Of a DNA stretch of 64,000 nucleotides, positions 10,556 through 63,953 are shown piece after piece. The stretch comes from a virus (Duplodnaviria; Caudoviricetes): positions 10,991 through 74,990 of IMG/VR virus record IMGVR_UViG_3300027914_001438. The stretch is one strand, 5' to 3'. The notes beneath the pieces are model-generated. The model worked only from the letters and a program-made list of their open reading frames with translations, was not told the origin of the DNA and did not search any database. The translations under genes were made by a program, and so were the position numbers. Position 1 is the stretch's first letter, and every line of letters starts with the position of its first letter.

Positions 10556-11622
10556 ATCTCTACACCCTTCAAGACGCTATAAACGCAACCGCCCGCTTCG
10601 TCGAGAATGGCAGCGGCGCATGTGACCGGGACACGATGATTGACCGCGTGAACGAGGCCTGCGACCGGCTGCTGCAGGTTGGCGACTGGCCGCACAGTAT
10701 GATGATCGTTAGAGCGCGCGTTGACAACTGGACGTTCCCGCTCCCGAATGAGCTCGAGGCCATACGCGCGATCAACATCGACAATAACCCGTCCACTGTC
10801 AACAGTCCGTACTTTCGCTTTATGGCCTCCGGGCCGGGCGAAGAGCGGTCGTGGTGCGGTACCGGGTACAAGGACATCGACGAGATGGGTCTGTATCCGC
10901 TGATGTACGATCTGCCATCTATCGAGGAGCCGGCCGGCTGCAGGGAGACAGACAGGACGTTTACTGTTGACGGCCTGAACATAATGGCCTTCAGCACGTC
11001 GCCGGCCGATGTCAACCAGTGCATTACTCTGCAGGGGCTGGACAAGTACAACGCCGCTTTAGGCGCGACCGGGGCCGCCTTCACCCCGTCCGAGCAGGTT
11101 CGCATTACGCCTTGGGACGGCGGGTCAGAGGGGGCGCTCACGGCAGAGATAACGAACTACCCGATGTCCGAACGCATCTATCGTCAGATCACCGCGTGGA
11201 GCAAACCCGAAACCGCCGGGCACGTCTCTTTGTACGCCGTAGAGCCAACGACCGCCCGCATGTGGTTCCTCTGCAAAGCCGGTCCGTACGAGACGCGGCC
11301 GTTTTGGAGGCGATACCGACTGCGCGGACAAAACTGCAGCGCTTCGAACATCCTAATATACGGAAAGATGGCCAGCCGCAAGCTGCGCGCGTCGGACGAC
11401 ATTCTTCCAATTCAGAACATTCCCGCCATCAAGATGATGGTGCAGGCGATCGAGTTCGAGAACAAGCAGCAGCTAAATCAAGGCGTGGAGTTTGAAGCCA
11501 ACGCGATCCGGCTGCTGACGAATCAGAAGTCCAACCACGATTCACAGGGGTTCAACGTCCAGCTGATTGATCACGACGTCGATCTGATGGGAGCGAGTGT
11601 GAGCAGGTATATTTCGAGGTAA
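10552..11622 (+). CDS. Probable tail adaptor / tubular protein A-like
   Basis: Helical N-terminus (DRVNEACDRLLQVGDWP) plus a beta core; adjacent to the nozzle gene. Confidence 0.5.
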   Translation: MNLYTLQDAINATARFVENGSGACDRDTMIDRVNEACDRLLQVGDWPHSMMIVRARVDNWTFPLPNELEAIRAINIDNNPSTVNSPYFRFMASGPGEERSWCGTGYKDIDEMGLYPLMYDLPSIEEPAGCRETDRTFTVDGLNIMAFSTSPADVNQCITLQGLDKYNAALGATGAAFTPSEQVRITPWDGGSEGALTAEITNYPMSERIYRQITAWSKPETAGHVSLYAVEPTTARMWFLCKAGPYETRPFWRRYRLRGQNCSASNILIYGKMASRKLRASDDILPIQNIPAIKMMVQAIEFENKQQLNQGVEFEANAIRLLTNQKSNHDSQGFNVQLIDHDVDLMGASVSRYISR

Positions 11623-30200: not shown

Positions 30201-33200
30201 GGTTCTCTCCAATCCGAACGTGCGCTCGGCGCTGTACACCATGATAGAAGAGCGGCTAATCGGCCCCGCGGACACAGAACGCGCTATTACCAGGCTTGAA
30301 GCCGCCGCCAACTCTTCTGCCGCGTTCTCTCTGTTGCCGAAAGATCTGCGGTCCGCTATAGGCGAACTGCTGGACTCTCAGATAACCGGCACGTCAGAAC
30401 AAAAAGTGTCCAGTATGATTGTGGGTCTCGACGGTCTGATTGACGCACAGCGGGAAGAAACGCTGGAAGAGTCGGAGCTTATGCCGGACGAGGAAGAAGA
30501 GAAAGAACCGGCCGCTGAAAGAGAAGTAACCCTTAAGTCCATGTCAGAAAATGATGCAAGGAATTTTGCGTCGCTGGTACATTACATAGCGGCGGACTCC
30601 GTGTCTTCCGGTATGGCGGACCTGGCCGTACGAATATACGTTGCAGCTTTGGCTAATCCAGAGTTTAAAGAAGAGCTCGCGAAAATGTCGGGCCTTCTCG
30701 ATGTGTCCAACCTGCCGGTAAACCTCAGAGCGCTTCCGACCGTTGATGCAGCTAGAGTAAGGCAGGCCGGGATAAAGACGCCCGGGGTGCGGGCGTCTCC
30801 GCTGTCACAGATTGCTGCCAACGAAGCCATCGACGCCATGTACACAGTGATGATGTCGCTTAATGAAGCGGACCGCACCATAACTATAGACTCGTCCAAA
30901 GTGATGGAGACCCTGGGGTTTATAGACGAGGAAGACAACACCACTATAGCAAAAGTCTCTGTCCCGATAGAATCTAAAAAAGACCTGATGAATATAATGC
31001 AGTACGCCTTCGTGTCCACGCGCGGCAGGCACTCACGTGCATTCGGGGACACCCTGTCGGTTATGCCGGCAACCTATCATATGCGCCTGGCCGCCGCCAA
31101 GCTGGACGAGATAAAAAGGTGGGGGTCGGCAGAAGCCAAGTTCCTAGTGACCTCTGCCTGGCTGTCCGAGTTTACAAGGCGTGGCAAAGAAAACAACCGC
31201 ATGTCTGAACGCAACCAGATATGGGGAGTGCTCGGTAAATACTCGACACGCGGTATCCCGGCCACTTCGTTGCTTGGTACCTTTGGAACTGGGGCTTCTT
31301 TCCTGGAGGCCGCGGTGACCAGAGTGCCGTCCGACGCTACGGTTACCGGCATAAAAGTGAAAATGGACCGGGCTCGCATAGCCCAGGACCCCTCCGCGGG
31401 CACGCGTTCTGTTGCGTCCTTCCTGAAAGGGGCCGGAATATCCGCGCTCCCGCGAGCCACCATGGACGAGCTGAACAGGATATTCTCTCTCGTCGAGGCG
31501 GACAATTACGACGAGGCCGCGAACTTGCTGGAGTCGTTGTCGGATGCTATAGACAGCAGACGCGCGAAAGACGACAGATACGAACGGCTGTATAAACTTT
31601 TGCAGCAGGGCATTAAGGATCACTTCCGAACCCTCGAGAAGAACCGGGAGTTCGCAGGAGAACTGCGGTCAGAAGAGATAAAGAAGGAAGTGGAGCGGGG
31701 GCACTACGACGGTACGATACCGCCTGAACAGGTGGAACGTGACGCCCCGTATTACGTATCGCATCTCAGAGCTCAAGGGCACTTCGAACGCACGCTTCCG
31801 TCGGACATTGTTGAGGTGTCCGGCAATGCGGTGGCCCTCGCTGCCGCTGCCGCGGCTCAGCTCAGGAGCATCGGGAAACAGGTTGAAGCGGATACTGTGC
31901 TCGTGCCCGAAGTGGCGACCTCTGTGTTCAAAGGCTATTCCGGGCGGAGCAAAGAAGCCTCGGACAGCCTAATCAAGCTGGCTACCCGGCTGGGCCTCGA
32001 GCAGGATACCGTCAAGCGGCTCGGCAATATTCCTTACGGCGTAGCGGAAGCCCGCATACGAATAGAGGACGACGGGCGGAAGCCCGGCACCCGCTCTATA
32101 ACCAGCTACATGAATTTGATAGATGATGCTATCCGCAACGCTGAGAAAATAGGCGGACCGAAATATTTCCACGACGTTATGCAGGTGCTTGAAAATTTCC
32201 AGCACGCCACCACACTCATCATAGGATCCGGTCTTGACCTTCCGAATACTGTGTTTGGCCAGGGGCTGGACAATGACGAGGTGTTCAACTGGTTCACAGA
32301 CAAGTTCGATAGACGCCACAAAAAGGGCGGCATCATTAAGAACCGCAGGCCATTTAAGATGGAATCCCGCCACGTTAATTACGGCACGATAGCTAATGCG
32401 ATAGTGCTCACGATAGCTGAAGGCAGCAAAAAGGTGCGGGTAAAAATGAAAGATGGTACCACACAGGATATGGTGCTGGTTGCTTTCGGGTCACACATGA
32501 AGGTCCACTCCAACCCGGAGGACAATTATGCGCTCGATCCGATAGTGTACATATACCGGGACGGCCTTACCGCCATTGGAAAGGACGCCGCAGACCGCGC
32601 GATAAAACGGTTCGTTGACAACGAGATAAACACGAAGTCTGACCCGGCCCAGCGCGCGCACCTGAGAGAGCAGTATATACGGATTTTCGAGTCGGAAGAC
32701 CCCGCAGGGTTCGCCAAGGCAAACGCAGAGGGCGGTGAACGGCAGGTGTTCCGCGCGGCCATATACCATGAGTTGTTTGAGAATGGGATCGAAGGAACTC
32801 CGCAAGTAGACCAGGTGGATAAAGAGACCGGCGTGGTTAAGTCTCCATTCCTGTCGCTCGACTACGCGATAGACTTGGTAAAGAACAGCGGCCTGTTCGA
32901 GCTTCTTAAAGAGCATGGCAGGACCGATGAGGACATGGACTTCTACCGCCTGGCAAAACAGATCAACGACGTGTCAGACCGCATATTCAACGCCACCTCT
33001 GACGTGTTCACTATGTTCAATCCTGGTTCCGGCCGGCTGGTTGGCTACACTAAAGGCTACATCCGGCACATCTACGGCGGCACTGGATTTGAAACGGCGG
33101 AGCGCTCCCGCATGCGCAGGGTAATAAACCAGATGGCCTTGAAGAAAGGCAGCCGCACGGGCGAGGGCTCCGGAGTTAGCCCGAACATTTTCAAGACCAC

Positions 33201-35787
33201 GTCCAGAGACGAGCCGGAAGAGCAGAAAGCAATGCCGGAACAGGAGACGCTGTTCGTGCGCATAGCGGAAGAGCTCGACAAAGAACTGGAACGCGCCGAT
33301 GAGAAGCAAGCGAATATGGTGGCCCGCACAGAGGACGAACGCAGCACGTGGAGCAAGTACTCATACAACTACATGATCCACAAGATGCTCACCCGTATAG
33401 AGCAGCTGAGAGGCCTGTACGCTGAGGCGCACAACGAGCCATACACGATGGACTATGCTCGCGCGTCTCTTATTGCGGGGCTTAAAAACTACTTCCGCGA
33501 ATATTCCGACAACGAGTGGACTCCGCTGGCTGGCAAGCGCATGTACTCCTCGTACGCCGATGCCATGATCAGGTCCGGCGGTGAAAAGAACCCGCTAATA
33601 ACCAACCCATCCAGGCTCACAGCGAAGAGTCTAACCGAACTCGTGGACTATGTGCTGCGGTCCACCCTTGCGGACATGGCCACCATGATAGTTGACTCTA
33701 CCGGCAACCCGCTCATGATACCGGTACGCAAAGTAGGCGAAAAAGAAGCGAGCCCCGTGGAGAGGCACAAACCCGTGCACTCCGCCGTCAGCGACGCCGC
33801 TCTGCACAGGCTTATAACGTACATGTCGTCGAAGGAAAATATAAAGATTGACCGGGACATGCCGCTCGGGGCTCAGCTGGAAATTATAGTGCGCGGTAAA
33901 AAAAAGACCTATGTTGATATGGAGCACAATCTCGCCAGTATAGAAGATCTCAAGGTGCTTGCGGACAAGGGTACCCCGGAGACCAAGGTTATAAAGAAAC
34001 TGTTTGGTGAACCATACCGTATAAAGGTTGAGCTTGGAGGGGGGTACGAGTACGACCTGCTGGCTCTGGCCGGAGAAACAAACGCTGTGCTGAAACAGAT
34101 GGCGCTGGGGTGGAGTGTGTTCTTTGGTACTGCCGGAATAGAATCCGTAATCGCCGGCACAAGTCCAAACCCGCTTAAGAGCATGGCGTTCCCGTTCCTC
34201 CCGTGGCAGTTGGCCCAGTACGGCGAGATGATAGAGTTCGGACGGGACGTGAGAAACAACTCCGTCCGCGCCGCCGAAGTTATGGCAGAGCTTACCCTGG
34301 CCGGAATGCGCCTGTCGGAGGCAGCGTCTTCCGACAATACGAATTCCGCCATAGACAGATTCATTGACAGGACGGCCTTGCGGATCAGCGAGAGGCTCGG
34401 CCGCCCGGACTTCGAACGCGGGGCGCGTGTCGGGCTGAGATGGCTCGCCGGCCGCCAGCTGTCGAAACTTCTTATGCGGGACTTCTTCGGAGGGCTCAAG
34501 ACCTGGGCGGCTATCAACCTAGTGAACGAGCTGTCGGTGCAGATGCCTACACACTCCAGATTCTCGGTAATGCGTGCGGCCGCCGATCCAGTGAATGACG
34601 CGTTCGGTGGACAGAACTGGTCTAAGTATTTGTGGGCAACGCCCCGGGTGCTGCAGATGCTGTCGCTGCTGCTGTTCGCACCCAACTGGACGCTGTCTGC
34701 GTTTAATGTCGCCGGCATGGCCGTCTTCACACAGGCCATGCTAGGTAATCGCATATCCCCGGTGCAGGCAAGGTTCGTCACAAGAAACTGGGTGTCCATG
34801 TACCTCATGGCCCTTCAGGTAATACCAAACATGCTGCAGGCGGCGATATACGGAGTGGCCGCTGCACTGCCCGGAGGCGCGGACGATGACGACGAAGATG
34901 ATAAGAAGTATGACCGCGTGCTGGCGTGGAACAACGAGTTCGGGAAGGGTGGTCTGTTCCCGTCTATCGACGTGACGCCGATAGCAAGGAAGCTTTGGAA
35001 TTACAAGGGCGAGCCCACTGGCAATCGTCGGGTGTACATCCGCTTTGGAAAGCAGTCATATGAAGTCATCAACGGGTGGCTCACCGACCCGGTGGCTACC
35101 GTTGGGCGCAAGTCCTCCATGCTGGTGAAGCTGGTGTGGGAACAGGCCTTCGGACACTCGCCCGGATCGCCAGACTTTCTGCTTCCGTTCAAGAGTGTCG
35201 GGCCGCTCTACGGTATATTCGGAAGTGATGCCGGGTTCCGCGGATCCCGTCTCGGGGTGCTGGCGTCGCATACAATCCCGATGTCGTTGTCCACCATGCT
35301 CACCACGCCGGACGCGGGGCTGCTGCCCCTGTTGGCTCCTGCCTCCAAAGGTATGAGCCAGACGCGGGCGACTCAGGGCATGATAAAGGTGCTGTCAGAA
35401 GCCGCAGAATACCGGCCGACGGGCCGCACCCGCCACCATCCTGAGCAATACGCTAACATGTACGCGCTGGCCGCTGAATACATGGACGCGGCAACGAGGA
35501 ACGGTTACGATGCGGATCAGGTGCTGTCTGCCGCGTACGGCGCGGTAGCTCCGAAGTACTATCGCAAGTTCTACGAGGCCTATTTGAACGGCGATATGGA
35601 TGCCGCCAACGAAATGGCCAAGAAGGTTATCCGTATAGGGGCCACAGTGCGCGGGCTGCAGCAGTCCGTAGTCGGAAGGCATCGCAAAACGGGCCGCGGT
35701 GAATTGACCGAGGAAGAGAAGGCGTCCCTTCAGGAGGCATTCGAGGGAGCCATGCCCGATATTATTAAGGAATTGAGGAACAAGTAA
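18253..35787 (+). CDS. Giant (5844 aa) virion protein containing a putative two-barrel RNA polymerase and a PD-(D/E)xK nuclease domain
   Basis: Motifs in order: DGQG (aa ~3102), AKPN, GAAK, NRIP (aa 3497), GSDVDAD (aa 3558-3564). Nuclease ADGII...LEIKT...Q.Y (aa ~2080-2140). Hydrophobic N- and C-terminal segments. Confidence 0.75.
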   Translation: MAIFETREEFVEDYKTRYPQFGNVGPQTLYSTAYHLDPEGTAASISGDSSPFFTESSQLLNGHRSVTPELADASDEEVAVDFAAKAPSIAAAWGLGGPHTGADTAGMEKKGVPPEMTEEEKRQETFSRMFGDWYGPMPSKPLEEYESGKKLLELGKKNLEGRAGFFEGFMGTRKSDFIPFGEIFGSTADIVDMIKIGNKMKDGDFSDVSEDEVVKFNLLMQQMKRMDEGGWKSLAGNIVKTSIMMGLEIGTTLGLGTLFGVGGRILSASSSASKLAAGKTLKTLGQMLAGKKAEISVLQKVISKGEKGLLKATGKKVGKEAGEEVAEEAAKKVGKKLVGKKAGEETLESIAEKKTQLTALQDSAAKIQDALAKERTRAGVISTFDEAVLRAAGSLDDAAVGVRQMTGVRGFFGGRAMMGRAFLDELGSMTSEGLAGKFGGKVAENFLRGAASFGVAGGAIATAQVGLKTAIELLASIATTGEPVTSSGARIQLRRMFEGKTEEDQKSFAAGLGDLFIEYFSEYSGEYLSAMLTAGVGGLPGAKGASAAWKKVSKEVGNKISRALAAGSNAANIPVDAVKNKAASKMVSVFKTMFAVERGGAVGPSEFMANLRAMGYSSIFGEWLEERFGGFLRGLTGLEGDEHKSYMRNIVESSFPANSDQAIAELVAFSIPGTANLAMRHLGKIMTLEDDSAYKESAKLYNRSIGKLAGRMQDTLIRNKAAIRDEVLQDRRKAIAEREVEIIPETEKERTAREAAIKQKDEQIAEIEAKRAELEKNKPADGASEEDKKAHEASVKKMGAAIDSLKKQRDDIRAPGEAKEEAPEAAPEAAPEAEKERKPSRLKKLGDKAAPRYYKLSREIDGAVDSVIEKLSMESRSDTVAPAEVIAEELKLELARRAEKKGLGDISDVLARITPASVSHLTANFTEAATLRNESNMILRRRDAMDMVSGTGIRSFFFDLANTFFEKTLGVHYYTQGAAEAAGIGAGGFGKTYTELAYRAGFVHSLNRNYTLWKKDVNQRVARARSILKRELTPDEESRVYNKALETAAQRYQADALAYAKVANFSNELLPYEKDIIAKALRHEYDLGLREEGSASTKDVLDEFLSMFNGPSNEWKNLHRAKSGSHMEQLLHDNPKQAGLAIQVLARLRGILPPFQEVSHELNWLGSFGEHILNILTPPGEGATEEEIKAHSDRFNALIDELADEEGKPPKPYGFASKEEALAFLIGATRVFRLPELMSGAKITAPDFTRDNAALDFFKDYFINMLALLDSRYIPETLKDVVDNTSKDKFIGLYNGLVATGLAVGGVTNRMREEGRPDPNSFADAIYMLMVGDALKRDWVPTPAFMILAYAAGVDVSSDAALASWTQAASRAMAVAAATLQPRQYPNVNDVLKVYRDKFGFMPRETGDDYADAIVIKVNRADGAAADKWDSAVVVALSEYSKYLEEDSNPEYEHTITQAELADNRVKIPPPAPTFIIAPGNISYRMTRRTLQLVYPSVYKQIASDPYNHILHYANADRSESPEDIFTFAEGSYNNTYGGGIIYVTPHGMNSLGLVEDTLEILHKQGSEEADGMDIPAFFYDKKNKTGYVASVLSALKEADMDETTAEGRARKRLLDYLIAATSYMDSKNGAEQALGREMLMEMLVKTVALFTLDFQYARSMNGLPAGAALVEEAFVAFKTVGKMEIDKPASGEKSDVQRDLLNRALQFYSARGLTADLIDDLRYERDAIFVGHTPTAGTSSELRGVRSRLPGPKGKKIRKRAANMRFQEGDEVIVLSDSGKVEGVAELTGKSYVSGTGRLIAGARKTMGQPKVFAKTRVIAFGGESVHKGEGVGVPETREVTTLPKVGKVKEAWDKVKEAHADRTKYMNATGLNKMIRGNIFSRFPDVLSFLKVKENTLALADKGVTPEEAAKKLEELDAAHLEAWAAFEAAVKEANLPYSSVFESVAGRHTVLDGITSRNVYIERESINDAPKKKKVVGKALNWLATAIVSKMRAGTKARRDSGTLSSASLGNIDRGMEDGSRGGEELATMLTGTTPVKNPMIEAGRKAIRKYVPDDAISGIEIFLRTDNKDDIMLITFADGIITWEENGEKHAIVLEIKTKSAKSNPLLNEDFMGVQEGDTLSENEAGLLQTYGEIRALMDLGWKEENIIGLRVLAGREKTSSGAINLKLFEHRAPSPATTMIEDPSDVRDLSDLGTIVTGSIKTREAGTLEEAYNLFLKRLGKEGVPREPASEPDEAAPEVPSNNEVPTSSKGEEEKTSGEEVPGTKKANKIKRGQRGTRSIAKVPEAPRARAKKAAPKLSRHSGDDRRGTRSITSYVTSYFKMVDSLGASGTISRRAVSGIGAAVARAAIAGDEDNGAFDSNELSRYLGALEVARNVSRTKETVGLHSAVAVLSSYLRRNKNGPMAQDSRESLADVALWIYSVLSDEAYRPLRTQMQLPGDGSHADAFSIALLASRVYMDTVALSYFIEDVMALGEETLGEKRLGDLRAMLEWVKSTPTLDMRKALEDGLTPATREMLENGTDLELHEKSVMAKDSIERMAEVLADQPEHDGYLTPMLGTVPKSALKSSEAVQRARQSVEYYSRITASVLKAWARDSKAGTEDAISKLALDENLGELDLRVFKVAAVSGMPYSKFSEVIGRASSLMEFRLLQYQDETKFRSSALVEHRGSLNKSGSIAALALRGLYSFMNKSSLFSNNTSAPGELGRMQNKFKPLRAFVYENYTEESAVDVRRLASVLLEKIKAVGLDMDPDLREELMSVVDTATAIVSRLIKASRAVDIDPDTVRYFAELTDKEYVRSLDQAAFNELAKDAGLLVSAWADALSEFTSTLERTGDATLAKAKAYEAFAGFKVKSEADAFSQGIVAKFLSSLAGFRSSNATVDQSTFTTTQFDLVVLSAIRALGPEFEKATADQLVSVQLRTGRDVLFHKLSPKHQRRVLEDISAINRDDGMVYVPVMRADRKGAYLLSLPEAALRDKAEKILGVLNGKSNPTEQDIEALKVYSIDNRERLVAAGNYLMAEAAFGTEAVPQLFRNIEFLKRLRQYNTGYKKVPSIRMSSTSAAGSRGLGVDNGELPIFAIDEMTITTNDGTVYTKDAMDGQGVLFDRVYDVVAQSLGYSSIPGSLKLTNLGTRSGDAYKDTNVLVMAKPNFVRAGTYMDSNAVLEKIKSTSGPSGIGLLMSAIEREPRLTGVVGILTGAAKVFSKENAPSETMTMELIHDGKVVGAVTIKGKHATAFAETFAQTAQLDGANQMTEDRANKGMLAGSSISWARADAAAGAMLGYALAAYGLMSSKYGESSREAQNILKTFDTAKRFNFGDQAYLVENAGMNPFHPALDDVYKNVSMRSFGDGIVAEVPRHDSTVVSDPGNFSGVHDGSGSTPATFRANIAGAQGAVRIRLPGVKSAASARARIADMLETAVRISELSGDLEGDDLKDFLSISKYLFEETGEPLSFTKSLRGLLTYDQTIDPASLYIEQDSKTGDLLVFPTHGTINRIPTHSIVTINSAAYLGPATYDYDSVTVRDTATGKLVQSYRAVAHRDNISIIAIETAERWGSDVDADALHFMQTIIPGRSTEYRGSMNAIMQKVDAGTADETDMKWLAYHMANELERAAAEVDPDTIASAGLINPGAYDEVLIKLTGDLGSILGTDERTVAEAAKAGMTPEFASLPKVLSTLDSIAAKSREARSGAMNAQDVLTFLTNVPGLRLFGDTSEEPLFTSKRGGTLRLENRDMSTPERVAKIMVSVNAVNVIIDMLKLAPRYALRFDMSAPFVAALLGSRVSMTPRTELDSINKFGADYVRNDPTSALNFVQTWVDFWNEDPGALLYNRAMAVIEEDRDRANVPTQWYGNFGILAALISQFMEEEKEATGQYPNMTKGSEDSDRFNDMIHAIKELFLAGEDIMRLGGFLKFAYDPAGANVYKMLSYLSLIERIESPKLRKDKDGNEIPPRVDFRGITGTSLYKLNKKAVELALKEREKFGVLSNPNVRSALYTMIEERLIGPADTERAITRLEAAANSSAAFSLLPKDLRSAIGELLDSQITGTSEQKVSSMIVGLDGLIDAQREETLEESELMPDEEEEKEPAAEREVTLKSMSENDARNFASLVHYIAADSVSSGMADLAVRIYVAALANPEFKEELAKMSGLLDVSNLPVNLRALPTVDAARVRQAGIKTPGVRASPLSQIAANEAIDAMYTVMMSLNEADRTITIDSSKVMETLGFIDEEDNTTIAKVSVPIESKKDLMNIMQYAFVSTRGRHSRAFGDTLSVMPATYHMRLAAAKLDEIKRWGSAEAKFLVTSAWLSEFTRRGKENNRMSERNQIWGVLGKYSTRGIPATSLLGTFGTGASFLEAAVTRVPSDATVTGIKVKMDRARIAQDPSAGTRSVASFLKGAGISALPRATMDELNRIFSLVEADNYDEAANLLESLSDAIDSRRAKDDRYERLYKLLQQGIKDHFRTLEKNREFAGELRSEEIKKEVERGHYDGTIPPEQVERDAPYYVSHLRAQGHFERTLPSDIVEVSGNAVALAAAAAAQLRSIGKQVEADTVLVPEVATSVFKGYSGRSKEASDSLIKLATRLGLEQDTVKRLGNIPYGVAEARIRIEDDGRKPGTRSITSYMNLIDDAIRNAEKIGGPKYFHDVMQVLENFQHATTLIIGSGLDLPNTVFGQGLDNDEVFNWFTDKFDRRHKKGGIIKNRRPFKMESRHVNYGTIANAIVLTIAEGSKKVRVKMKDGTTQDMVLVAFGSHMKVHSNPEDNYALDPIVYIYRDGLTAIGKDAADRAIKRFVDNEINTKSDPAQRAHLREQYIRIFESEDPAGFAKANAEGGERQVFRAAIYHELFENGIEGTPQVDQVDKETGVVKSPFLSLDYAIDLVKNSGLFELLKEHGRTDEDMDFYRLAKQINDVSDRIFNATSDVFTMFNPGSGRLVGYTKGYIRHIYGGTGFETAERSRMRRVINQMALKKGSRTGEGSGVSPNIFKTTSRDEPEEQKAMPEQETLFVRIAEELDKELERADEKQANMVARTEDERSTWSKYSYNYMIHKMLTRIEQLRGLYAEAHNEPYTMDYARASLIAGLKNYFREYSDNEWTPLAGKRMYSSYADAMIRSGGEKNPLITNPSRLTAKSLTELVDYVLRSTLADMATMIVDSTGNPLMIPVRKVGEKEASPVERHKPVHSAVSDAALHRLITYMSSKENIKIDRDMPLGAQLEIIVRGKKKTYVDMEHNLASIEDLKVLADKGTPETKVIKKLFGEPYRIKVELGGGYEYDLLALAGETNAVLKQMALGWSVFFGTAGIESVIAGTSPNPLKSMAFPFLPWQLAQYGEMIEFGRDVRNNSVRAAEVMAELTLAGMRLSEAASSDNTNSAIDRFIDRTALRISERLGRPDFERGARVGLRWLAGRQLSKLLMRDFFGGLKTWAAINLVNELSVQMPTHSRFSVMRAAADPVNDAFGGQNWSKYLWATPRVLQMLSLLLFAPNWTLSAFNVAGMAVFTQAMLGNRISPVQARFVTRNWVSMYLMALQVIPNMLQAAIYGVAAALPGGADDDDEDDKKYDRVLAWNNEFGKGGLFPSIDVTPIARKLWNYKGEPTGNRRVYIRFGKQSYEVINGWLTDPVATVGRKSSMLVKLVWEQAFGHSPGSPDFLLPFKSVGPLYGIFGSDAGFRGSRLGVLASHTIPMSLSTMLTTPDAGLLPLLAPASKGMSQTRATQGMIKVLSEAAEYRPTGRTRHHPEQYANMYALAAEYMDAATRNGYDADQVLSAAYGAVAPKYYRKFYEAYLNGDMDAANEMAKKVIRIGATVRGLQQSVVGRHRKTGRGELTEEEKASLQEAFEGAMPDIIKELRNK

Positions 35788-49829: not shown

Positions 49830-50050
49830 TATCGCTCTCGTCGTTCAAGCATATCATCGGCGTATTCGTATGCCAAACGGGCCGCATCGGCGGTGCTCAT
49901 ATTTTCATCCCCGGTCATCCCGCATAGCGCCCGACCCGCGAACCAGTCACGCAGTGTCATGCCGGGCTGTGAATGCACGACTTCGTCGTTGAACTTGTCT
50001 TCGCTATGTGGCCTGGGGAATGCGGCCCCGCCGTCATTTATCCTGCTCAT
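49829..50050 (-). CDS. Common phage small protein (GGxAFP...GMTLRDWFA family)
   Basis: INDGGAAFP and GMTLRDWFAG motifs. Confidence 0.75.
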   Translation of the reverse strand: MSRINDGGAAFPRPHSEDKFNDEVVHSQPGMTLRDWFAGRALCGMTGDENMSTADAARLAYEYADDMLERRER

Positions 50051-59050: not shown

Positions 59051-59419
59051 TTACTCTCCGAAGGCGACGCTGAGGGCCGCGTCTTCAATGATGGTTTCCG
59101 GGTCATGCCCGTCGAAGAAAATGCTGTCGATTACCAGCTGGTTGAAGATCTGTTCTTCCAATTCATTCGCGGGGACCGCGTTATCGGGAACCTTTTTCGC
59201 GAGTTTCTTGGTTACCTTGTTCTGAAGTTTTTCGATTTTCTTGCGCTGGCTTTGCATCCATACTTCATTGTTGGCGAGTTGCTCCTCGATGTCAAATATT
59301 TCAGTCATAATCTTACTGATCGCGGGGCTTCGCAATTGATCAGCTAGATCCTGCTGTCTTATTTCGATTGCCCGCCGAGCCGCTTCTTTCGCCATTGCTT
59401 TAATCTGATATTTCTTCAT
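59051..59419 (-). CDS. Hypothetical coiled-coil protein (122 aa)
   Basis: ORF in operon. Confidence 0.6.
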   Translation of the reverse strand: MKKYQIKAMAKEAARRAIEIRQQDLADQLRSPAISKIMTEIFDIEEQLANNEVWMQSQRKKIEKLQNKVTKKLAKKVPDNAVPANELEEQIFNQLVIDSIFFDGHDPETIIEDAALSVAFGE

Positions 59420-59852
59420 CTTCGATTTCTCCCGTTTCTTTGGTTTCTTTTTTCGCCATCTCTTCGATGGCTTTAATCAATCCCATTTTCTCGGCCGCCT
59501 TGATGTCCAAGAACATAAAACGACGTCGGATAGCCCAATCTGCGCTGCTCCCGAAAAATCGGGTAACCGCTTCGTCCGTAAGCACAGTGAAATGTCCCGT
59601 GCGGTGAGGGTTCGGGAGCGATGACTTGTTCCATCCCGGCTCGGATTTCTCATCATCCACAACGATGACGATAATTCCTTGTTTCATGTACTCCTGGCAT
59701 TTTTGGCACGGCTCCATGTCAACCACTTTTCCGTGAGCCGCTTTCACTTTGTTTGCAATTCTTTCGGAAAACACTTTATTCAGAAGTATTCTGTCGTCTT
59801 CTCCGCAGAAATAGCATTTGGTTAATGCCACTCCGAATGTTTTTTCATTCAC
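59400..59852 (-). CDS. Hypothetical Zn-binding protein
   Basis: CYFC...CQKC; GTG start after an AAAGGAG SD. Confidence 0.6.
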   Translation of the reverse strand: MNEKTFGVALTKCYFCGEDDRILLNKVFSERIANKVKAAHGKVVDMEPCQKCQEYMKQGIIVIVVDDEKSEPGWNKSSLPNPHRTGHFTVLTDEAVTRFFGSSADWAIRRRFMFLDIKAAEKMGLIKAIEEMAKKETKETGEIEDEEISD

Positions 59853-59881
59853 TTTTAACTCCTTTCGTTGTTGAATCAGAC

Positions 59882-59942
59882 CCCGAACAACCACGTTCAG
59901 GGTACGTCGCTTCGCTCCGCCCCCTGACGCGGGGCGTTCGGC
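59882..59942 (+). other. attC-like site A (61 bp)
   Basis: CCCGAAC-AACCA-CGTTCAGG...CCTGACG-CGGGGC-GTTCGGC. Confidence 0.85.
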
Positions 59943-60208
59943 TTATGAATATCCGTCGTCCACTCGTAGCCGCAGGTTCGGCAGTGGTGCGTCAGGCACT
60001 CGCGTCGCGCCTTGCAGTTGTACGTGTCATAGACGACGTGTGCCGTTTCCCATCGGCGGTAGTCGCCCATCGTCTTGTCCCACTCGTCGCCTTGACGGTG
60101 GTGGCGGCGGTAGATGTCGGCCCCTCCGCACTTCTCGCAGGAAGCCGAACAAGGCGGTGCAGCACTACGGCTGGCCCGCGCGTTGGTTGTGTTGACGGTA
60201 TTCTTCAT
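59897..60208 (-). CDS. Cassette Zn-ribbon protein (103 aa)
   Basis: CEKC...CRTC; starts inside attC B and stops inside attC A. Confidence 0.7.
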   Translation of the reverse strand: MKNTVNTTNARASRSAAPPCSASCEKCGGADIYRRHHRQGDEWDKTMGDYRRWETAHVVYDTYNCKARRECLTHHCRTCGYEWTTDIHKPNAPRQGAERSDVP

Positions 60209-60262
60209 GGTCTATCCTCCTTGGTTGTTTCGTCTAGCCGGGGCTGACCGTTGGCGTTGGAA
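60144..60262 (+). other. attC-like site B (119 bp)
   Basis: GCCGAAC-AAGGC-GGTGCAGC...GCTGACC-GTTGGC-GTTGGAA; R'' complements R' of A. Confidence 0.85.
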
Positions 60263-60375
60263 ACGACAGGATCAAGCGTCTCATCCGGGTAGCCCGTTCT
60301 GACCGGGGGCGCAAACATGCAGGGGCACGTCGGGTAGACCTCTGCATGAGTTATTGTCATCCTGTGCGTTTCCAT
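60205..60375 (-). CDS. Putative cassette micro-protein (56 aa, METHR...)
   Basis: Manually found; crosses R' of B as Asn and has an ATGA overlap with the next gene. Confidence 0.4.
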   Translation of the reverse strand: METHRMTITHAEVYPTCPCMFAPPVRTGYPDETLDPVVSNANGQPRLDETTKEDRP

Positions 60376-60547
60376 AATTCAGTTTCCAACATGTGCGTTC
60401 TCCGGACGCTCCGCGCCGGAGACGCGAGCGTTGGCGGTATGCGTGTTTGAACTTGCAGGATGCGCAACGCCGTTCCCCCTGCCGTGACCACTGAGGACCG
60501 AAAATAGGCATATCGTCGTGATAACCGTTTGTCCCACAGTGCATCAC
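60281..60547 (-). CDS. Cassette Cys-containing protein (88 aa)
   Basis: AAGGGG SD, CASC motif; reads through attC C out of the Asn frame. Confidence 0.5.
   Translation of the reverse strand: MMHCGTNGYHDDMPIFGPQWSRQGERRCASCKFKHAYRQRSRLRRGASGERTCWKLNYGNAQDDNNSCRGLPDVPLHVCAPGQNGLPG
60384..60436 (+). other. attC-like site C (53 bp, 5-nt second spacer)
   Basis: TTCCAAC-ATGTG-CGTTCTCC...GGAGACG-CGAGC-GTTGGCG; R'' complements R' of B. Confidence 0.75.
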
Positions 60548-60828
60548 CCCCTTTCTGCGGGGAGGTCCCCGCCAACAAAATCTTGGAGCGTACCGTCGCT
60601 CCGCGCCGTCCGCTCAAAATCGGCGTTGGAAATACGATGCTCACGGCGCAGCTTGCGGCACAGCAATCGGATTTCCTTGCACTTATCCACACGGCCGCGC
60701 GCTTCGGACCTTGCTCCCTCCATGACCGGACCTTTGTCGCCCCGCCAGCGAGGCGCATAGCCTTTCAGAGCGTCCATGTCTTCCCGACACTCGCGTTCGA
60801 TCCGTCTCAACACTTGTTCAACTGTCAT
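60544..60828 (-). CDS. Cassette protein (94 aa)
   Basis: AGGAG SD; reads through attC D. Confidence 0.65.
   Translation of the reverse strand: MTVEQVLRRIERECREDMDALKGYAPRWRGDKGPVMEGARSEARGRVDKCKEIRLLCRKLRREHRISNADFERTARSDGTLQDFVGGDLPAERG
60570..60631 (+). other. attC-like site D (62 bp)
   Basis: CGCCAAC-AAAAT-CTTGGAGC...GCTCAAA-ATCGGC-GTTGGAA; R'' complements R' of C. Confidence 0.85.
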
Positions 60829-60849
60829 AGCGTTTCTCCTGATTCAGAT

Positions 60850-60922
60850 TTCCAACAATCCCATGCACCGCTATCGTGGTTCCGCTCCGCTACACCCCGA
60901 AGGGTGATGGGGAGCGTTCAAC
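60850..60922 (+). other. attC-like site E (73 bp)
   Basis: TTCCAAC-AATCC-CATGCACC...GGTGATG-GGGAGC-GTTCAAC; R'' complements R' of D. Confidence 0.85.
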
Positions 60923-61068
60923 CTAGCGCGGCGTTTCGCGGCAGTCGCCTTGCCGCCCATCCTGCCAGCGGCTACGGCCTGCTCATGGGTACGGGCCTTT
61001 GACTTGCCACGCCCAGCCTTGCCGCCTTTGCGCCCGATCTCTGACAGGTATGCTTTGACCTCGTTCAT
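60871..61068 (-). CDS. KGG-repeat small basic protein
   Basis: EIGRKGGKAG...AAGRMGGKA repeats; stops in attC E. Confidence 0.65.
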   Translation of the reverse strand: MNEVKAYLSEIGRKGGKAGRGKSKARTHEQAVAAGRMGGKATAAKRRARLNAPHHPSGCSGAEPR

Positions 61069-61373
61069 AGGTCAACACCGCAGGCGTATGCCGTGTCCTC
61101 TGACATCGGTTCAAATCCGTATTGCAAGTCTTCAATCAACTGCGCTATGGCCTCGCTTCTTCCGTTCGGGTCATCGAAGTAGTAAGGCGCACAGCATGAC
61201 GTTCCGTTGCTGGCACGGAACTGCAATCTCAATGACTGGTCAATGGTGATTGTGATTATGCCTTGATTGCAACATTCATGCGGGCGCGTTTCGTCAATCT
61301 CAATGTCTGGCTGCCCGCATTTAATGATTGCCGCTTTTAGTGTTGCCAGTGTTTTCATATTCTTCCTCTTCAT
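61065..61373 (-). CDS. Hypothetical protein (102 aa)
   Basis: Coupled ORF. Confidence 0.6.
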   Translation of the reverse strand: MKRKNMKTLATLKAAIIKCGQPDIEIDETRPHECCNQGIITITIDQSLRLQFRASNGTSCCAPYYFDDPNGRSEAIAQLIEDLQYGFEPMSEDTAYACGVDL

Positions 61374-61579
61374 TCTTCAATCTCGGCAAGGGCGGCTTTC
61401 GCCATATCCCTGCAATCAATTCCATCTGCTCCGTGGTCAATAATGTTTTTCAGCGCATTTACGGCCAGCGCAAGCTCGCGCTCAAGTTGGCGGGCGAAGT
61501 CGGCAGAAACGGCTGATTGTCCGTATGCCCCCTTCGGGAACACCTGTTTATCCGTTCTCGGTGTTTTAGTTTCGCTCAT
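61370..61579 (-). CDS. Common phage small protein (TPRTD...FARQLEREL type)
   Basis: TPRTD and VSADFARQLEREL motifs. Confidence 0.7.
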   Translation of the reverse strand: MSETKTPRTDKQVFPKGAYGQSAVSADFARQLERELALAVNALKNIIDHGADGIDCRDMAKAALAEIEE

Positions 61580-61580
61580 T

Positions 61581-61847
61581 TCACTCCTTTTCCGTTGTTC
61601 GCGTGATAGGCGGACTTTTTACGTCTATTGCGCTGTTCGGTGGAGTCCAGCCAAGCGCAATCAATGCCTCTCGAATACCTTTCTCGCTTGTGTCCATAAC
61701 CCAGCGAGATATTTCGCGCTCGCTCTGCCCAATAGCCGAAAGCTCCTGCACAATCTTTCCGTCGCTGTGCGGGGTAACAGTTAATCTTAACCCGACCGAA
61801 CCATTCGGTTGAGTTCTACCCTTGCCTCGTTTTGCGTTATTGCTCAT
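61581..61847 (-). CDS. Cassette protein (88 aa; LIALGWTPP motif)
   Basis: Start MSNNA inside attC G after an AAAGGA SD. Confidence 0.65.
   Translation of the reverse strand: MSNNAKRGKGRTQPNGSVGLRLTVTPHSDGKIVQELSAIGQSEREISRWVMDTSEKGIREALIALGWTPPNSAIDVKSPPITRTTEKE
61594..61641 (+). other. Degenerate attC-like site F
   Basis: GTTGTTC (GTTGAAC expected from E)-GCGTG-ATAGGCG...CGTCTAT-TGCGCT-GTTCGGT. Confidence 0.5.
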
Positions 61848-61894
61848 CTGATCCTTTCTGCTCGGCGGCGGGAGACTCACCGCTGGCGTTCTGC
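61795..61894 (+). other. attC-like site G (100 bp)
   Basis: ACCGAAC-CATTC-GGTTGAGT...ACTCACC-GCTGGC-GTTCTGC; R'' complements R' of F. Confidence 0.85.
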
Positions 61895-62091
61895 CTGTGG
61901 TTCCACATCTCCAACGCTCCGTGCGAACGACCGGACTCCGTGCTGGCGCGGGACGGCATCCAGACTCCGCACCCGTTGCACAGTACCCCGGAGTCGTAGG
62001 GTTTGTGCTCTACCGCCTCGCCGGTTGCCCCGCAGAAGGGGCAAGGCAGAACAACGGCCTCGACGCGACCGCGTATTGCGCGTTTTGTCAT
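61837..62091 (-). CDS. Lar-like (restriction alleviation) Zn-ribbon cassette protein
   Basis: LPCPFCG...V.CNGCG...A...WN.R pattern. Confidence 0.65.
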   Translation of the reverse strand: MTKRAIRGRVEAVVLPCPFCGATGEAVEHKPYDSGVLCNGCGVWMPSRASTESGRSHGALEMWNHRQNASGESPAAEQKGSDEQ

Positions 62092-62133
62092 GGCGATCCT
62101 TCCTCGCCCGGCGCGTCAGGCCGGACGTTCGCA
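62046..62133 (+). other. attC-like site H (88 bp)
   Basis: GCAGAAC-AACGG-CCTCGACG...CGTCAGG-CCGGAC-GTTCGCA; R'' complements R' of G. Confidence 0.85.
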
Positions 62134-62324
62134 TAGTGTTCTTCTATCGTTAGGTCGTGTAGCATTTGTTCAAGTTGCCTGCGTCTTGACGTGGCCGCAA
62201 ACCACCTGTCGTTGGTTACTCCGACCGGACACGCCAGTATCCGCAATTCATTTTGTCGCATCGCCTTCATCAGACGAGCAAACACGGCGTCGCTGGGATA
62301 CCGCTTGCGAACAAGAGCATTCAT
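62088..62324 (-). CDS. Cassette protein (78 aa)
   Basis: Start codon lies in L'' of attC I; stop lies in attC H. Confidence 0.6.
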   Translation of the reverse strand: MNALVRKRYPSDAVFARLMKAMRQNELRILACPVGVTNDRWFAATSRRRQLEQMLHDLTIEEHYANVRPDAPGEEGSP

Positions 62325-62375
62325 GCTACGTCCTTTCGCTTCGCTTCAGGCCGAGGGTGATGCTCGGCGTTCGAT
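62306..62375 (+). other. attC-like site I (70 bp)
   Basis: TGCGAAC-AAGAG-CATTCATG...GGTGATG-CTCGGC-GTTCGAT; R'' complements R' of H. Confidence 0.8.
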
Positions 62376-62653
62376 TGCTGGCAATATGTTGGCTTTTTAT
62401 ATGGCCGAATCCGGTACGGGAATACGCCGCGCAACAGGATCGGGCCTAGAAATACTTTCCACTCGATGATATTTGCCAAATACTTCCAGTCCTCGCTGAC
62501 CGCGCTCATTCCGGCTGGCCCCATCGCAATTCCGACCCCCCATACCGAATGAATGTGAATCCTGAAATGGAAGAATCGAACCATGCGCTGGAGTTTACCG
62601 GCGAGGGCCGGTGCTTTGCTTTTTGTCGTCGGTTTGTTAGCGTTCTTTTTCAT
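62321..62653 (-). CDS. Cassette protein (110 aa)
   Basis: Starts inside attC J and stops inside attC I. Confidence 0.6.
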   Translation of the reverse strand: MKKNANKPTTKSKAPALAGKLQRMVRFFHFRIHIHSVWGVGIAMGPAGMSAVSEDWKYLANIIEWKVFLGPILLRGVFPYRIRPYKKPTYCQQSNAEHHPRPEAKRKDVA

Positions 62654-62701
62654 GATTCACCTTTCTGTTTTTGAGCCGGAAACTCACCCCCAGCGTTCTG
62701 C
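62575..62701 (+). other. attC-like site J (127 bp)
   Basis: ATCGAAC-CATGC-GCTGGAGT...ACTCACC-CCCAGC-GTTCTGC; R'' complements R' of I. Confidence 0.85.
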
Positions 62702-63021
62702 GCCTTGCGCCACGCGGACAGTTTTTCGTCAATGCAGCCCCGGCAAACGCATCGCGGGGACGGTTGATGCAGCGGACCGGTGTAGTAGCACCGCATCCCT
62801 TGAATGTGGTCAATCAACTCGGCGACTGTTGGCGCAGATTTCATGTTGGGTGTTTTTTCATTGCGCTTTGCCCGCGCCACCCGGTAGCGTAATTTGTGTT
62901 CTCCGCTCTTTCCCTCAGCCTCGGCGTCGTCGAAGTCTACGATTGCTACTTCAACCCCGGCGCTGGCGTAAGCGATTTCGGCCACTCCACCTGATACGCT
63001 GATAATTACTTGCTTCATCAT
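62650..63021 (-). CDS. Hypothetical protein (123 aa), possible two-part fusion
   Basis: N-half VIISVSGGVAE...IVDFD; C-half Cys-containing; stops inside attC J. Confidence 0.6.
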   Translation of the reverse strand: MMKQVIISVSGGVAEIAYASAGVEVAIVDFDDAEAEGKSGEHKLRYRVARAKRNEKTPNMKSAPTVAELIDHIQGMRCYYTGPLHQPSPRCVCRGCIDEKLSAWRKAQNAGGEFPAQKQKGES

Positions 63022-63536: not shown

Positions 63537-63953
63537 TTAGACCCTGTGAGCGCGGGCAATTACGCTGTCATAAGCGGCGTCTGTCATGAAGGCGATCTCC
63601 AGCCCCTGCGGGTTGTTGATCACGACTCCGGGCAGGATTGCGCCGATGTGCTGCTCGCCTTCCTTGAGGCCGTTGGCTGCCACGTCAGATATGCTGCCCG
63701 ATGGATCTCGGGTAAATATGCGCCAGAGACGCGCTGCGTCTTTGAGCTGGATGGTGTTCTGCCCGTCGTAGGCTTCCACGATTCCCGCGTGCACGCCGGC
63801 CACGTTTGCCCGGACAATAACTTTCTTCCCGATGATGTTGATCAGGGACTTCTTCGTTGCTTTCTTCGTTGCTTTCTTCGTTGCTTTCTTCGTTGCTTTC
63901 TTCATTTTGTTGTCCTTCTGTGTTGTTGCGTTTGTTTTTAAACGTTTGTTCAT
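63537..63953 (-). CDS. KKAT-repeat leader fused to DUF6948-like domain
   Basis: (KKAT)x4 then GKKVIVRANVAGVHAG...LKDAARLW; alternative start at 63905. Confidence 0.65.
   Translation of the reverse strand: MNKRLKTNATTQKDNKMKKATKKATKKATKKATKKSLINIIGKKVIVRANVAGVHAGIVEAYDGQNTIQLKDAARLWRIFTRDPSGSISDVAANGLKEGEQHIGAILPGVVINNPQGLEIAFMTDAAYDSVIARAHRV
63850..63897 (-). repeat. Four perfect 12-bp tandem units encoding KKAT
   Basis: TTCTTCGTTGCT x4. Confidence 0.95.

Follow-up and report, generated by a model that had tools for sequence, protein, structure and literature searches.

An integron-type array of gene cassettes in the early region of an uncultured phage

The stretch analyzed here (the window) comprises 64,000 nucleotides, positions 10,991 to 74,990 of the 75-kb virus record IMGVR_UViG_3300027914_001438 (Duplodnaviria; Caudoviricetes), an uncultured, probably virulent phage that also encodes rIIA/rIIB homologues and a 5,844-aa protein. 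Its early small-gene region contains a run of short open reading frames on the - strand that are transcribed from right to left. The first gene of the run encodes a 123-aa protein (62650-63021), followed by ORFs of 110 aa (62321-62653), 78 aa (62088-62324), 84 aa (61837-62091) and about 88 aa (61581-61847), two ORFs of 102 and 69 aa (61065-61579), and ORFs of 65 aa (60871-61068), 94 aa (60544-60828), 56 aa (60205-60375) and 103 aa (59897-60208), the last being Cys-rich. The 84-aa product is a Lar-like restriction-alleviation protein (PF14354, E=1.7e-9), and the 65-aa product harbors a KGG motif (PF10685, E=6e-7). Immediately left of site A (described below) lies a conserved gene encoding a 164-aa protein (59400-59894, - strand), which is 99.5% identical in relatives.

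Interspersed with these genes, and read on the + strand, are nine full attC-type hairpin sites and one degenerate site, located between positions 59882 and 62701. These are A (59882-59942; R'' CCCGAAC, R' GTTCGGC), B (60144-60262; GCCGAAC, GTTGGAA), C (60384-60436; TTCCAAC, GTTGGCG), D (60570-60631; CGCCAAC, GTTGGAA), E (60850-60922; TTCCAAC, GTTCAAC), G (61795-61894; ACCGAAC, GTTCTGC), H (62046-62133; GCAGAAC, GTTCGCA), I (62306-62375; TGCGAAC, GTTCGAT) and J (62575-62701; ATCGAAC, GTTCTGC), the right-most full site, whereas F consists only of an R' (GTTCGGT, 61635-61641) without a recognizable hairpin. Each full site has a 7-nt R'' ending in AAC, a 5-nt spacer, an 8-nt L'' with a single bulged base after its third base, a variable loop, a 7-nt L', a 6-nt spacer (5 nt in C), and GTT plus 4 nt. 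The L'' and L' boxes pair 7/7 in A, B, C, E, G and H and 6/7 in D and J; those of I pair less well, and this site was not listed by our scanner, although it was found by the covariance models described below. The sites are 53-127 nt long, in keeping with the variable central loop and overall length of about 57-141 nt of integron attC sites, and the same scanner settings picked out the attC sites of aadA1, aac(6')-Ib, aac(6')-IIc and dfrA14.

The bases following each GTT differ among sites, but the eight complementarities between neighboring sites listed in an earlier note on this sequence (A-B, B-C, C-D, D-E, F-G, G-H, H-I and I-J) are all exact 7/7 matches, and two of them extend to 8-9 nt, whereas site E has no chained partner on its right. 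Within a single site, the four variable bases of R'' and R' are not complementary. The distances between successive R' G positions are 320, 174, 195, 291, 719, 253, 239, 242 and 326 bp, matching the figures of the note. To determine whether such an arrangement could arise by chance, we searched for strict-geometry sites throughout the + strand of the 75-kb genome, finding that six of the eight detected lie within this 2.8-kb stretch; 300 Markov resamples of the region gave a mean of 0.03 strict sites and no chained link, compared with 6 sites and 5 links observed, which excludes chance. The observation made in the note is thus confirmed, with the one small correction that sites A, B, H and I begin or end a few bases from where a casual count puts them.

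The genes and the sites are arranged in an unusual manner, as all the ORFs are antisense to the attC top strand, and gene starts and stops are found in or beside the hairpins. The long loop of site B holds the RBS and ATG of the 103-aa ORF and the stop of the 56-aa ORF, and the ORFs of about 88 aa and 110 aa start in the loops of G and J, respectively. The 103-aa ORF belongs to cassette A to B, the 56-aa ORF to B to C, the 94-aa ORF to D to E, the 102-aa and 69-aa ORFs lie inside the long 719-bp unit E to F, and the ORFs of about 88, 84, 78 and 110 aa belong to F to G, G to H, H to I and I to J, respectively. The AAC of R', read on the coding strand, is in frame 0 at 10 of 10 R' sites, being an in-frame Asn codon, so that the C-terminal tail of each protein is encoded by the neighboring cassette. 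The last 13 residues of the 103-aa protein, from the in-frame Asn, are encoded by site A, and the tail of the 123-aa protein by site J. In agreement with this, eleven protein clusters homologous to the 103-aa protein (60-94% identical) are conserved up to the motif HKPN and then diverge completely. Since stop and start codons overlap and lie in or beside the hairpins, these structures probably also affect expression. However, the view that they are only regulatory elements, such as RNA processing sites, translational coupling elements or hairpin promoters for a virion RNA polymerase, is very unlikely, as it does not explain the chained complementarity, the similarity to attC sites, or the whole-cassette differences cut at GTT described below, which already contradict it; moreover, no Rfam family matched.

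The note had proposed that the early region is a shufflable library of very small cassettes, and had named the lack of cassette-level gain, loss or reordering with breakpoints at G|TT among relatives as grounds for rejecting this idea. We therefore compared the window with contigs whose backbones are 99.3-99.6% identical to it. Four of them (L001, L002, L003 and L051) match the window up to base 59938, the last T of the GTT in the R' of site A, and then carry a different cassette whose R'' (CGCCAAC) matches their changed R' (GTTGGCG), rejoining the window at 60253-60434. Site A is both the left end of the array and a hot spot where relatives diverge. The B to C cassette is shared at 100% and 97.5% identity with L001 and L002, and site C carries R' GTTGGCA in L002/L051 and GTTGGAA in L001, each matching the next cassette where that cassette is seen. 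A further contig, L018, lacks exactly positions 61889-62127 (239 bp), that is, site H together with the G to H cassette body encoding the Lar-like protein, site G being retained and joined directly to TTCGCA; the 78-aa ORF is called as 82 aa in L018, where its tail comes from site G. As the lost hairpin is H and the kept one is G, this deletion fixes the polarity of the array, with the + strand as the top strand. L018 also carries at site F an extra 206-bp cassette, with its own hairpin, between two copies of GTTCGGT. These comparisons show one replacement, one deletion and one insertion of whole cassettes, all with breakpoints at the GTT of R'.

The replacement observed in L001 and L051 is flanked by conserved sequence on both sides, and replacement of a cassette between two phages could also occur by homologous recombination in the conserved flanks, so that not every difference seen needs a site-specific event. 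An alternative reading is that the array is a relic, laid down by past IntI activity, for example by insertion into the phage genome at GTT sites in an IntI-bearing host, and reshuffled today only among co-infecting phages by homologous recombination in conserved flanks and shared sites. IntI can insert cassettes outside att sites, at genomic attG sites (bioRxiv 10.1101/2022.09.11.507474), and the degenerate site F and the unpartnered site E point to decay. On the other hand, the deletion and the insertion in L018 are precise single-cassette events bounded only by the 7-bp core, eight of nine chained links are still perfect, and assemblies break repeatedly just after site A, which suggests ongoing heterogeneity. 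We thus consider the relic hypothesis unlikely.

A lack of covariance-model support was a second outcome that the note had set against its own reading. A model built from true attC sites (R1), dominated by Vibrio-type sites, found nothing in the window, but it also missed the aac(6')-Ib and aac(6')-IIc attC sites, so this result is weak; as IntegronFinder and HattCI were not run, detection of the phage sites by a model of true attC sites was left undecided. In the reciprocal direction, models trained only on phage sites recovered bona fide attC sites in plasmid and chromosomal integrons. Model R2, built from 6 phage sites, gave 11 hits with E<1 in 134 kb of true integron loci, all of them full-length known or chained attC sites on the cassette-sense strand, including that of aadA1 (E=2.3e-4), to which even part of the loop aligned. 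Model R3 found all nine full sites in the window, among them A (E=6e-15), B (E=8.5e-7), C (E=0.02), G (E=2.4e-7) and J (E=3.7e-5), the last of which was not in the training set, with one weak hit elsewhere. R3 also hit 10 of 151 sampled bacterial genomes, one of the hits (locus L077) being a chained gammaproteobacterial attC array beside an IntI gene (E=7e-128 against an IntI profile), with sense ORFs.

The same geometry and chaining were seen in true integrons used as positive controls, namely the Vibrio phage integron L011, the class 1 arrays L055, L054, L056, L059 and L060, and the Vibrio plasmid L061. The rule that the six bases after each G|TT are complementary to the R'' at the end of the same cassette held in these controls, in the window, and in the phage arrays L002/L051, L012, L052 and L069. 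With respect to class 1 cassettes (attC of aadA1, aac(6')-Ib, dfrA5/14), the box geometry is identical, with a second spacer of 5-6 nt, the neighbor complementarity is the same, and the phage-site model hits these attC sites. However, class 1 arrays have IntI1, attI1 and the Pc promoter upstream, their ORFs lie on the attC top strand and end before or inside their own attC, and their R' follows GTTRRRY, whereas many phage R' sites read GTTC followed by other bases. Sedentary chromosomal integrons, such as Vibrio-type arrays and that of L077, are likewise long rows of small cassettes of mostly unknown function with chained attC sites, but they sit beside intI, have sense-strand ORFs, and within one host their attC sites are much more alike than the sites of this phage array are to one another.

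The note had stated that there is no integrase in the window, and this holds for the whole 75-kb contig, for about 10 kb further upstream recovered from relatives, and for every related array context fetched, about 384 kb in all. No PF00589 or TIGR02249 hit was found in the contig, no tyrosine, serine or Y1 recombinase gene was found in any of this DNA, and no IntI-like or Xer-like ORF was detected in any phage locus fetched, with a positive control in the same search. The array therefore lacks the adjacent intI gene of a complete integron and corresponds to a CALIN (attC cluster lacking an integrase), with ten sites within 2.8 kb, although the formal IntegronFinder call was not made. As for an attI site and a Pc promoter, nothing recognizable lies to the left of site A, but attI sites have no general model and the consensus promoter scan was no better than shuffles, so their presence was neither supported nor excluded. 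As CheckV estimates the genome to be about 70% complete, a recombinase could lie in the missing part. In an alternative reading, the sites are recombined by a recombinase other than an integron integrase, which could be encoded in the missing part or be a short Xer-like enzyme, and the antisense, in-frame cassette design shared by unrelated phages suggests a phage-adapted system. Nevertheless, we regard this alternative as unlikely, given the exact class 1 attC geometry of the sites, the recovery of IntI-associated attC sites by the phage-site models, and the absence of a recombinase from the DNA recovered.

Taken together, these data support the interpretation offered in the note, and we consider with good confidence that the locus is a genuine integron-type cassette array without an integrase gene. 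In this model, each cassette, read on the + strand, runs from the TT of one R' through a gene body to its own attC hairpin and the G of the next R', and recombination happens at G|TT, as in integrons, which explains the complementarity between the two ends of each cassette. Cassettes are excised, inserted and replaced as units in natural populations of this phage, and the next cassette downstream in transcription, whichever it is, supplies a 13-27-residue tail and the stop codon. Our analysis directly demonstrates the anatomy of the sites, their chained complementarity, the turnover of cassettes at GTT, the likeness to true attC sites, the fixed reading frame and the absence of a recombinase gene in the DNA recovered. 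In contrast, the identity of the enzyme is only inferred: somewhat more likely than not, it is an IntI-type integron integrase supplied in trans by the host, which is itself unknown, acting on folded single strands or extruded hairpins during infection. IntI-dependent recombination of the sites through the folded bottom strand, the third point on which the note had said its reading could fail, was not assayed here, and the note had likewise left undecided whether a host IntI or a recombinase encoded elsewhere in the genome operates the array. Antisense ORFs that cross the recombination point are not what bacterial integron cassettes look like, which speaks against this interpretation.

CALINs in virulent phages are not new, as they were published by Qi et al. 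in 2023 (Front Microbiol; PMC9892861), who showed that five of the six phage attC sites tested were recombined by IntI1. As in the present case, those sites lie in rows inside phage genomes with no IntI nearby and their cargo includes DNA methyltransferases, methyltransferase-like cassettes being carried here by the relatives L012 and L052. The published cases have at least two attC sites (three in phage TJE1) and were predicted in single genomes, and in TJE1 and PH101 the cassettes are co-oriented in the arrangement that the authors call typical of bacterial arrays. In contrast, the array described here has ten sites, direct population evidence of cassette gain, loss and replacement, ORFs antisense to the sites, and a recombination point that lies in frame inside the genes, and the same cassettes and site types occur in unrelated phages.

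It is about as likely as not that phages maintain their own pool of "inverted" integron cassettes, shared among unrelated lineages, in which the fixed in-frame Asn codon at the recombination point would allow any cassette to be joined to any other while keeping intact an operon of translationally coupled early, partly anti-restriction, genes. On this reading, phages would borrow the integron integrase of the host, or use an unrecognized enzyme, to reshuffle their counter-defence genes during infection. The antisense layout, with the crossover inside the reading frame, is a design not described for bacterial integrons, and it makes clear, testable predictions about strand choice, expression and protein tails. 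Integrons are known as bacterial devices for stockpiling and shuffling genes, and their cassettes have recently been shown to encode many anti-phage defences, whereas the phage-borne attC clusters reported in 2023 came without evidence that they turn over. Here, natural populations of one phage show cassettes being inserted, deleted and replaced at the integron crossover point, with a cargo that includes restriction-alleviation (Lar-like) genes and, in related arrays, methyltransferase-like genes, which, together with the presence of the same cassettes in unrelated phages, suggests that phages use the same recombination chemistry on their side of the arms race.

The window, bases 10991-74990 of a 74,990-bp linear IMG/VR virus contig rated about 70% complete by CheckV, ends where the contig ends. 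The contig encodes rIIA-like and rIIB-like proteins, a helicase, an exonuclease, a family A DNA polymerase and, on the + strand at 18253-35787, a single 5,844-aa ORF, which together with the rIIA/rIIB genes marks an unusual phage lineage with no close cultured relative. The polymerase is at most about 24% identical to that of any cultured phage, and a DNA search of the array against cultured phages gave no match. From 38 kb to the end all genes are on the - strand, and the array lies in a run of tightly packed small genes upstream of rIIA. Elsewhere in the window, a 12-bp unit (TTGCTTTCTTCG) is repeated about four times at 63840-63900, encoding on the - strand a KKAT repeat near the N-terminus of the 138-aa DUF6948 protein. 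Rfam and tRNA scans of the window found nothing, and a consensus promoter and terminator scan was uninformative.

To examine the attC-like sites described in the earlier note, we read the sequence and scanned the whole contig for a geometry consisting of a 7-nt R'' ending in AAC, a 5-nt spacer, an 8-nt L'' with one bulged base, a loop, a 7-nt L', a 5-6-nt spacer, and GTT plus 4 nt. Nine sites fit, namely A (59882-59942), B (60144-60262), C (60384-60436), D (60570-60631), E (60850-60922), G (61795-61894), H (62046-62133), I (62306-62375) and J (62575-62701), whereas F is only an R' at 61635-61641. The eight complementarities between neighboring sites listed in the note are all exact, while the variable bases of R'' and R' within one site do not pair. 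Six of the eight strict-geometry sites on the + strand of the whole genome lie in these 2.8 kb, and Markov resamples of the region gave on average 0.03 strict sites and no chained link, against 6 and 5 observed. The observation made in the note is real and far beyond chance. The bases after the R' of J (TCTGCGCC, 62695-62704) are exactly complementary to GGCGCAGA at 62831-62838, inside the 123-aa ORF, but the expected AAC there reads ATT; this may be a decayed eleventh site. GTTCGGG, the exact complement of the R'' of site A (CCCGAAC), lies at 59610-59616 inside the conserved 164-aa flanking gene and could be an old cassette boundary or a chance match; no hairpin site or variation among relatives was seen there.

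As positive controls, the same scanner was run on a Vibrio phage carrying a true integron (MK672802; IntIA plus array), where it found the attC sites and the same chaining (GTTATGC then GCATAAC, GTTAAAT then ATTTAAC, and so on). Class 1 and class 2 arrays on plasmids gave the same result with the same settings, with the attC sites of aac(6')-Ib, aadA1, aac(6')-IIc and dfrA14 all showing 7/7 L-box pairing, a bulge after the third base of L'', and spacers of 5 and 5-6 nt. The geometry that the note called canonical is therefore that of real attC sites. Some L boxes are nearly the same, as illustrated by CATCGAGG/CCTCATG in aac(6')-Ib against CATCGAAG/CTTCATG in a relative of this phage.

Because gain, loss or reordering of whole cassettes with breakpoints at G|TT among relatives had been put forward in advance as a test of the cassette reading, we looked for closely related contigs. 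A single-protein search of viral contigs with rIIA found nothing, but homologs of rIIA led to contigs 99.3-99.6% identical to the window, and exact-protein look-ups with genes from the right flank gave contigs spanning the whole array. Three array versions were found. In the first, five contigs (L013-L017) match the array of the window at 99.8-100% identity over the parts they cover. In the second, contigs L001, L002, L003 and L051 match the window up to base 59938, the last T of the GTT in the R' of A, which in them reads GTTGGCG instead of GTTCGGC; a different 292-bp cassette follows, ending in its own hairpin whose R'' is CGCCAAC, and identity to the window resumes at 60253-60434, which is exactly cassette B to C. 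After site C come other cassettes, and the R' of C has changed to match the next one. Contig L051, otherwise 99.3-99.7% identical, also lacks 212 bp at 49834-50045, a strain-level indel in the replication-gene region. In the third version, contig L018 lacks exactly 61889-62127, the Lar cassette with hairpin H, so that hairpin G is joined to TTCGCA, and carries an extra 206-bp cassette, with its own hairpin, between two copies of GTTCGGT at site F. As the unit lost from L018 is the body plus the right-hand hairpin, this deletion fixes the cassette as TTNNNN-body-hairpin-G on the + strand, the same polarity as indicated by the box geometry. Several assemblies end within about 50 nt after site A, which fits heterogeneity there; raw reads were not examined for excision joints or circles. 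These comparisons support the interpretation of the stretch as an integron-like cassette array. N4-type hairpin promoters were considered first, because of the rIIA/rIIB genes and the giant virion protein, but this idea was dropped because it explains neither the chaining nor the cassette breakpoints.

The array is not a clade-wide feature, as distant relatives of this phage (L005, L008, L009 and L010; rIIA 37-44% identical) have small early genes but no such sites. Distant relatives (L008 12711-13511 and 16623-17414; L009 4611-5435) carry HNH endonuclease genes inserted among the rIIA/rIIB/helicase genes, and one carries an RtcB-like gene in the early region, none of them having attC-like sites. 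Beyond the right end of the window, upstream of the array, a second region of small genes (L013 upstream and contigs L064-L068), partly on the opposite strand, differs in gene content between contigs from different samples. It has no integrase. It also has no attC-like sites, so another mechanism of variation acts there.

Support from a covariance model was likewise a condition set beforehand, and we addressed it with models of our own, the IntegronFinder model not having been applied. Model R1, built from 12 true attC sites, found nothing in the window, but it was dominated by Vibrio-type sequence and missed the attC sites of aac(6')-Ib and aac(6')-IIc, being too specific to Vibrio-type sites to be a fair test, and we count its result as inconclusive. 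Model R2, built from six phage sites with a structure that we specified, gave 11 hits at E<1 in 134 kb of true integron loci, every one of them a full-length known or chained attC site on the cassette-sense strand, including aadA1 (E=2.3e-4), dfrA5 (0.0046) and aac(6')-Ib (0.015 and 0.047). In Tetrasphaera phage TJE1, R2 gave only one weak hit, inside a glycosyltransferase gene, and no comparison with that published CALIN was made. Model R3, rebuilt from 18 phage sites, finds all nine full sites in the window on the + strand, including C and J, which were not in its training set. The only other hit was a weak match (E=0.03-0.3) at 16540-16618 on the - strand, inside the 866-aa ORF, which was itself in the training alignment; it is isolated and unchained, and probably chance. 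R3 was also run over 151 bacterial genomes sampled from the class of one control genome and hit ten of them. Of the loci hit, L077 is a chained attC array beside an integron integrase gene (E=7e-128 against our IntI profile) with sense-strand ORFs, and L076 is another chained array. Two of the ten genomes (G041 and G143) are unpublished, and no claim here rests on them. A degenerate A/C-type site pattern scanned over 185,579 species genomes gave 30 hits, all of them chance matches in GC-rich genomes with no AAC box and no chaining.

The arrangement of the genes differs from that of the control arrays, in which the ORFs lie on the attC top strand. Here every ORF is on the opposite strand, and the same holds in every other phage context found (L051, and the further contigs L012, L052, L069 and L070). 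Moreover, the ORFs cross the recombination point. The AAC complementary to each R' GTT is an in-frame Asn codon at all ten sites (chance probability of about 2e-5), and each is followed by a 13-27-residue tail, mostly starting Asn-Ala, encoded by the neighboring site and ending at a stop that often overlaps the next start codon. In the long-loop sites (B, G, H, I and J) the RBS and start codon of the cassette's own gene lie in the loop. The design works in practice, as in L018 the 78-aa gene is called as an intact 82-aa ORF with a tail taken from site G. Independent support comes from a protein search, in which eleven clusters homologous to the 103-aa cassette protein (60-94% identical) were found to be conserved up to the motif HKPN and then to diverge completely in sequence and length.

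To determine whether sites and cassettes occur in other phages, viral contigs were scanned with site patterns. The pattern of site C found nothing, and that of site A found only one unrelated contig, L012. Site A, at about 96% identity, also ends different cassettes in three contigs otherwise unlike the window, of which L012 shows no DNA or protein-level match to the genome, and L052 and L053 match it only at site A. L012 encodes a primase-helicase, a terminase and a methyltransferase-like cassette gene. The 103-aa cassette family occurs in L069, a contig with a different gene content (an ERF recombinase and an N6/N4 methyltransferase) that has five chained sites, and also in L070/L071, beside a radical SAM gene, preceded by a different attC site but beginning with the same TTCGGC. 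Cargo with a recognizable family comprises two different Lar-like restriction-alleviation proteins, methyltransferase-like proteins and a KGG-motif protein.

The note had reported no integrase in the window and had called for a search for IntI/tyrosine recombinases in the rest of the genome. Six-frame searches of the whole contig with Pfam Phage_integrase, the NCBIfam integron integrase model, Resolvase and Y1 transposase found nothing. A profile of IntI1, IntI2, two IntIA proteins and a phage integrase found nothing in about 384 kb of phage loci, while it recovered both integrases of the control locus. Contigs reaching about 10 kb beyond the window's end, which do not close the genome, have no such sites and no recognizable recombinase. 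The enzyme was thus not identified, and its nature is an inference, in contrast to the sites and cassette differences observed in the sequences. Because the sites match attC sites in box geometry, chaining and cassette turnover, and IntI1 has been shown to recombine phage-borne attC sites (PMC9892861), our best inference, which we consider somewhat more likely than not, is a host integron integrase acting in trans. IntI can also insert cassettes at non-att GTT sites (bioRxiv 10.1101/2022.09.11.507474), which offers one route by which an array could be seeded in a phage genome.

The array is a CALIN in a phage, a kind published in 2023. It differs from what is already known in its size, in the direct evidence of turnover in nature, in the antisense in-frame architecture of its cassettes, and in the sharing of these cassettes among unrelated phages.
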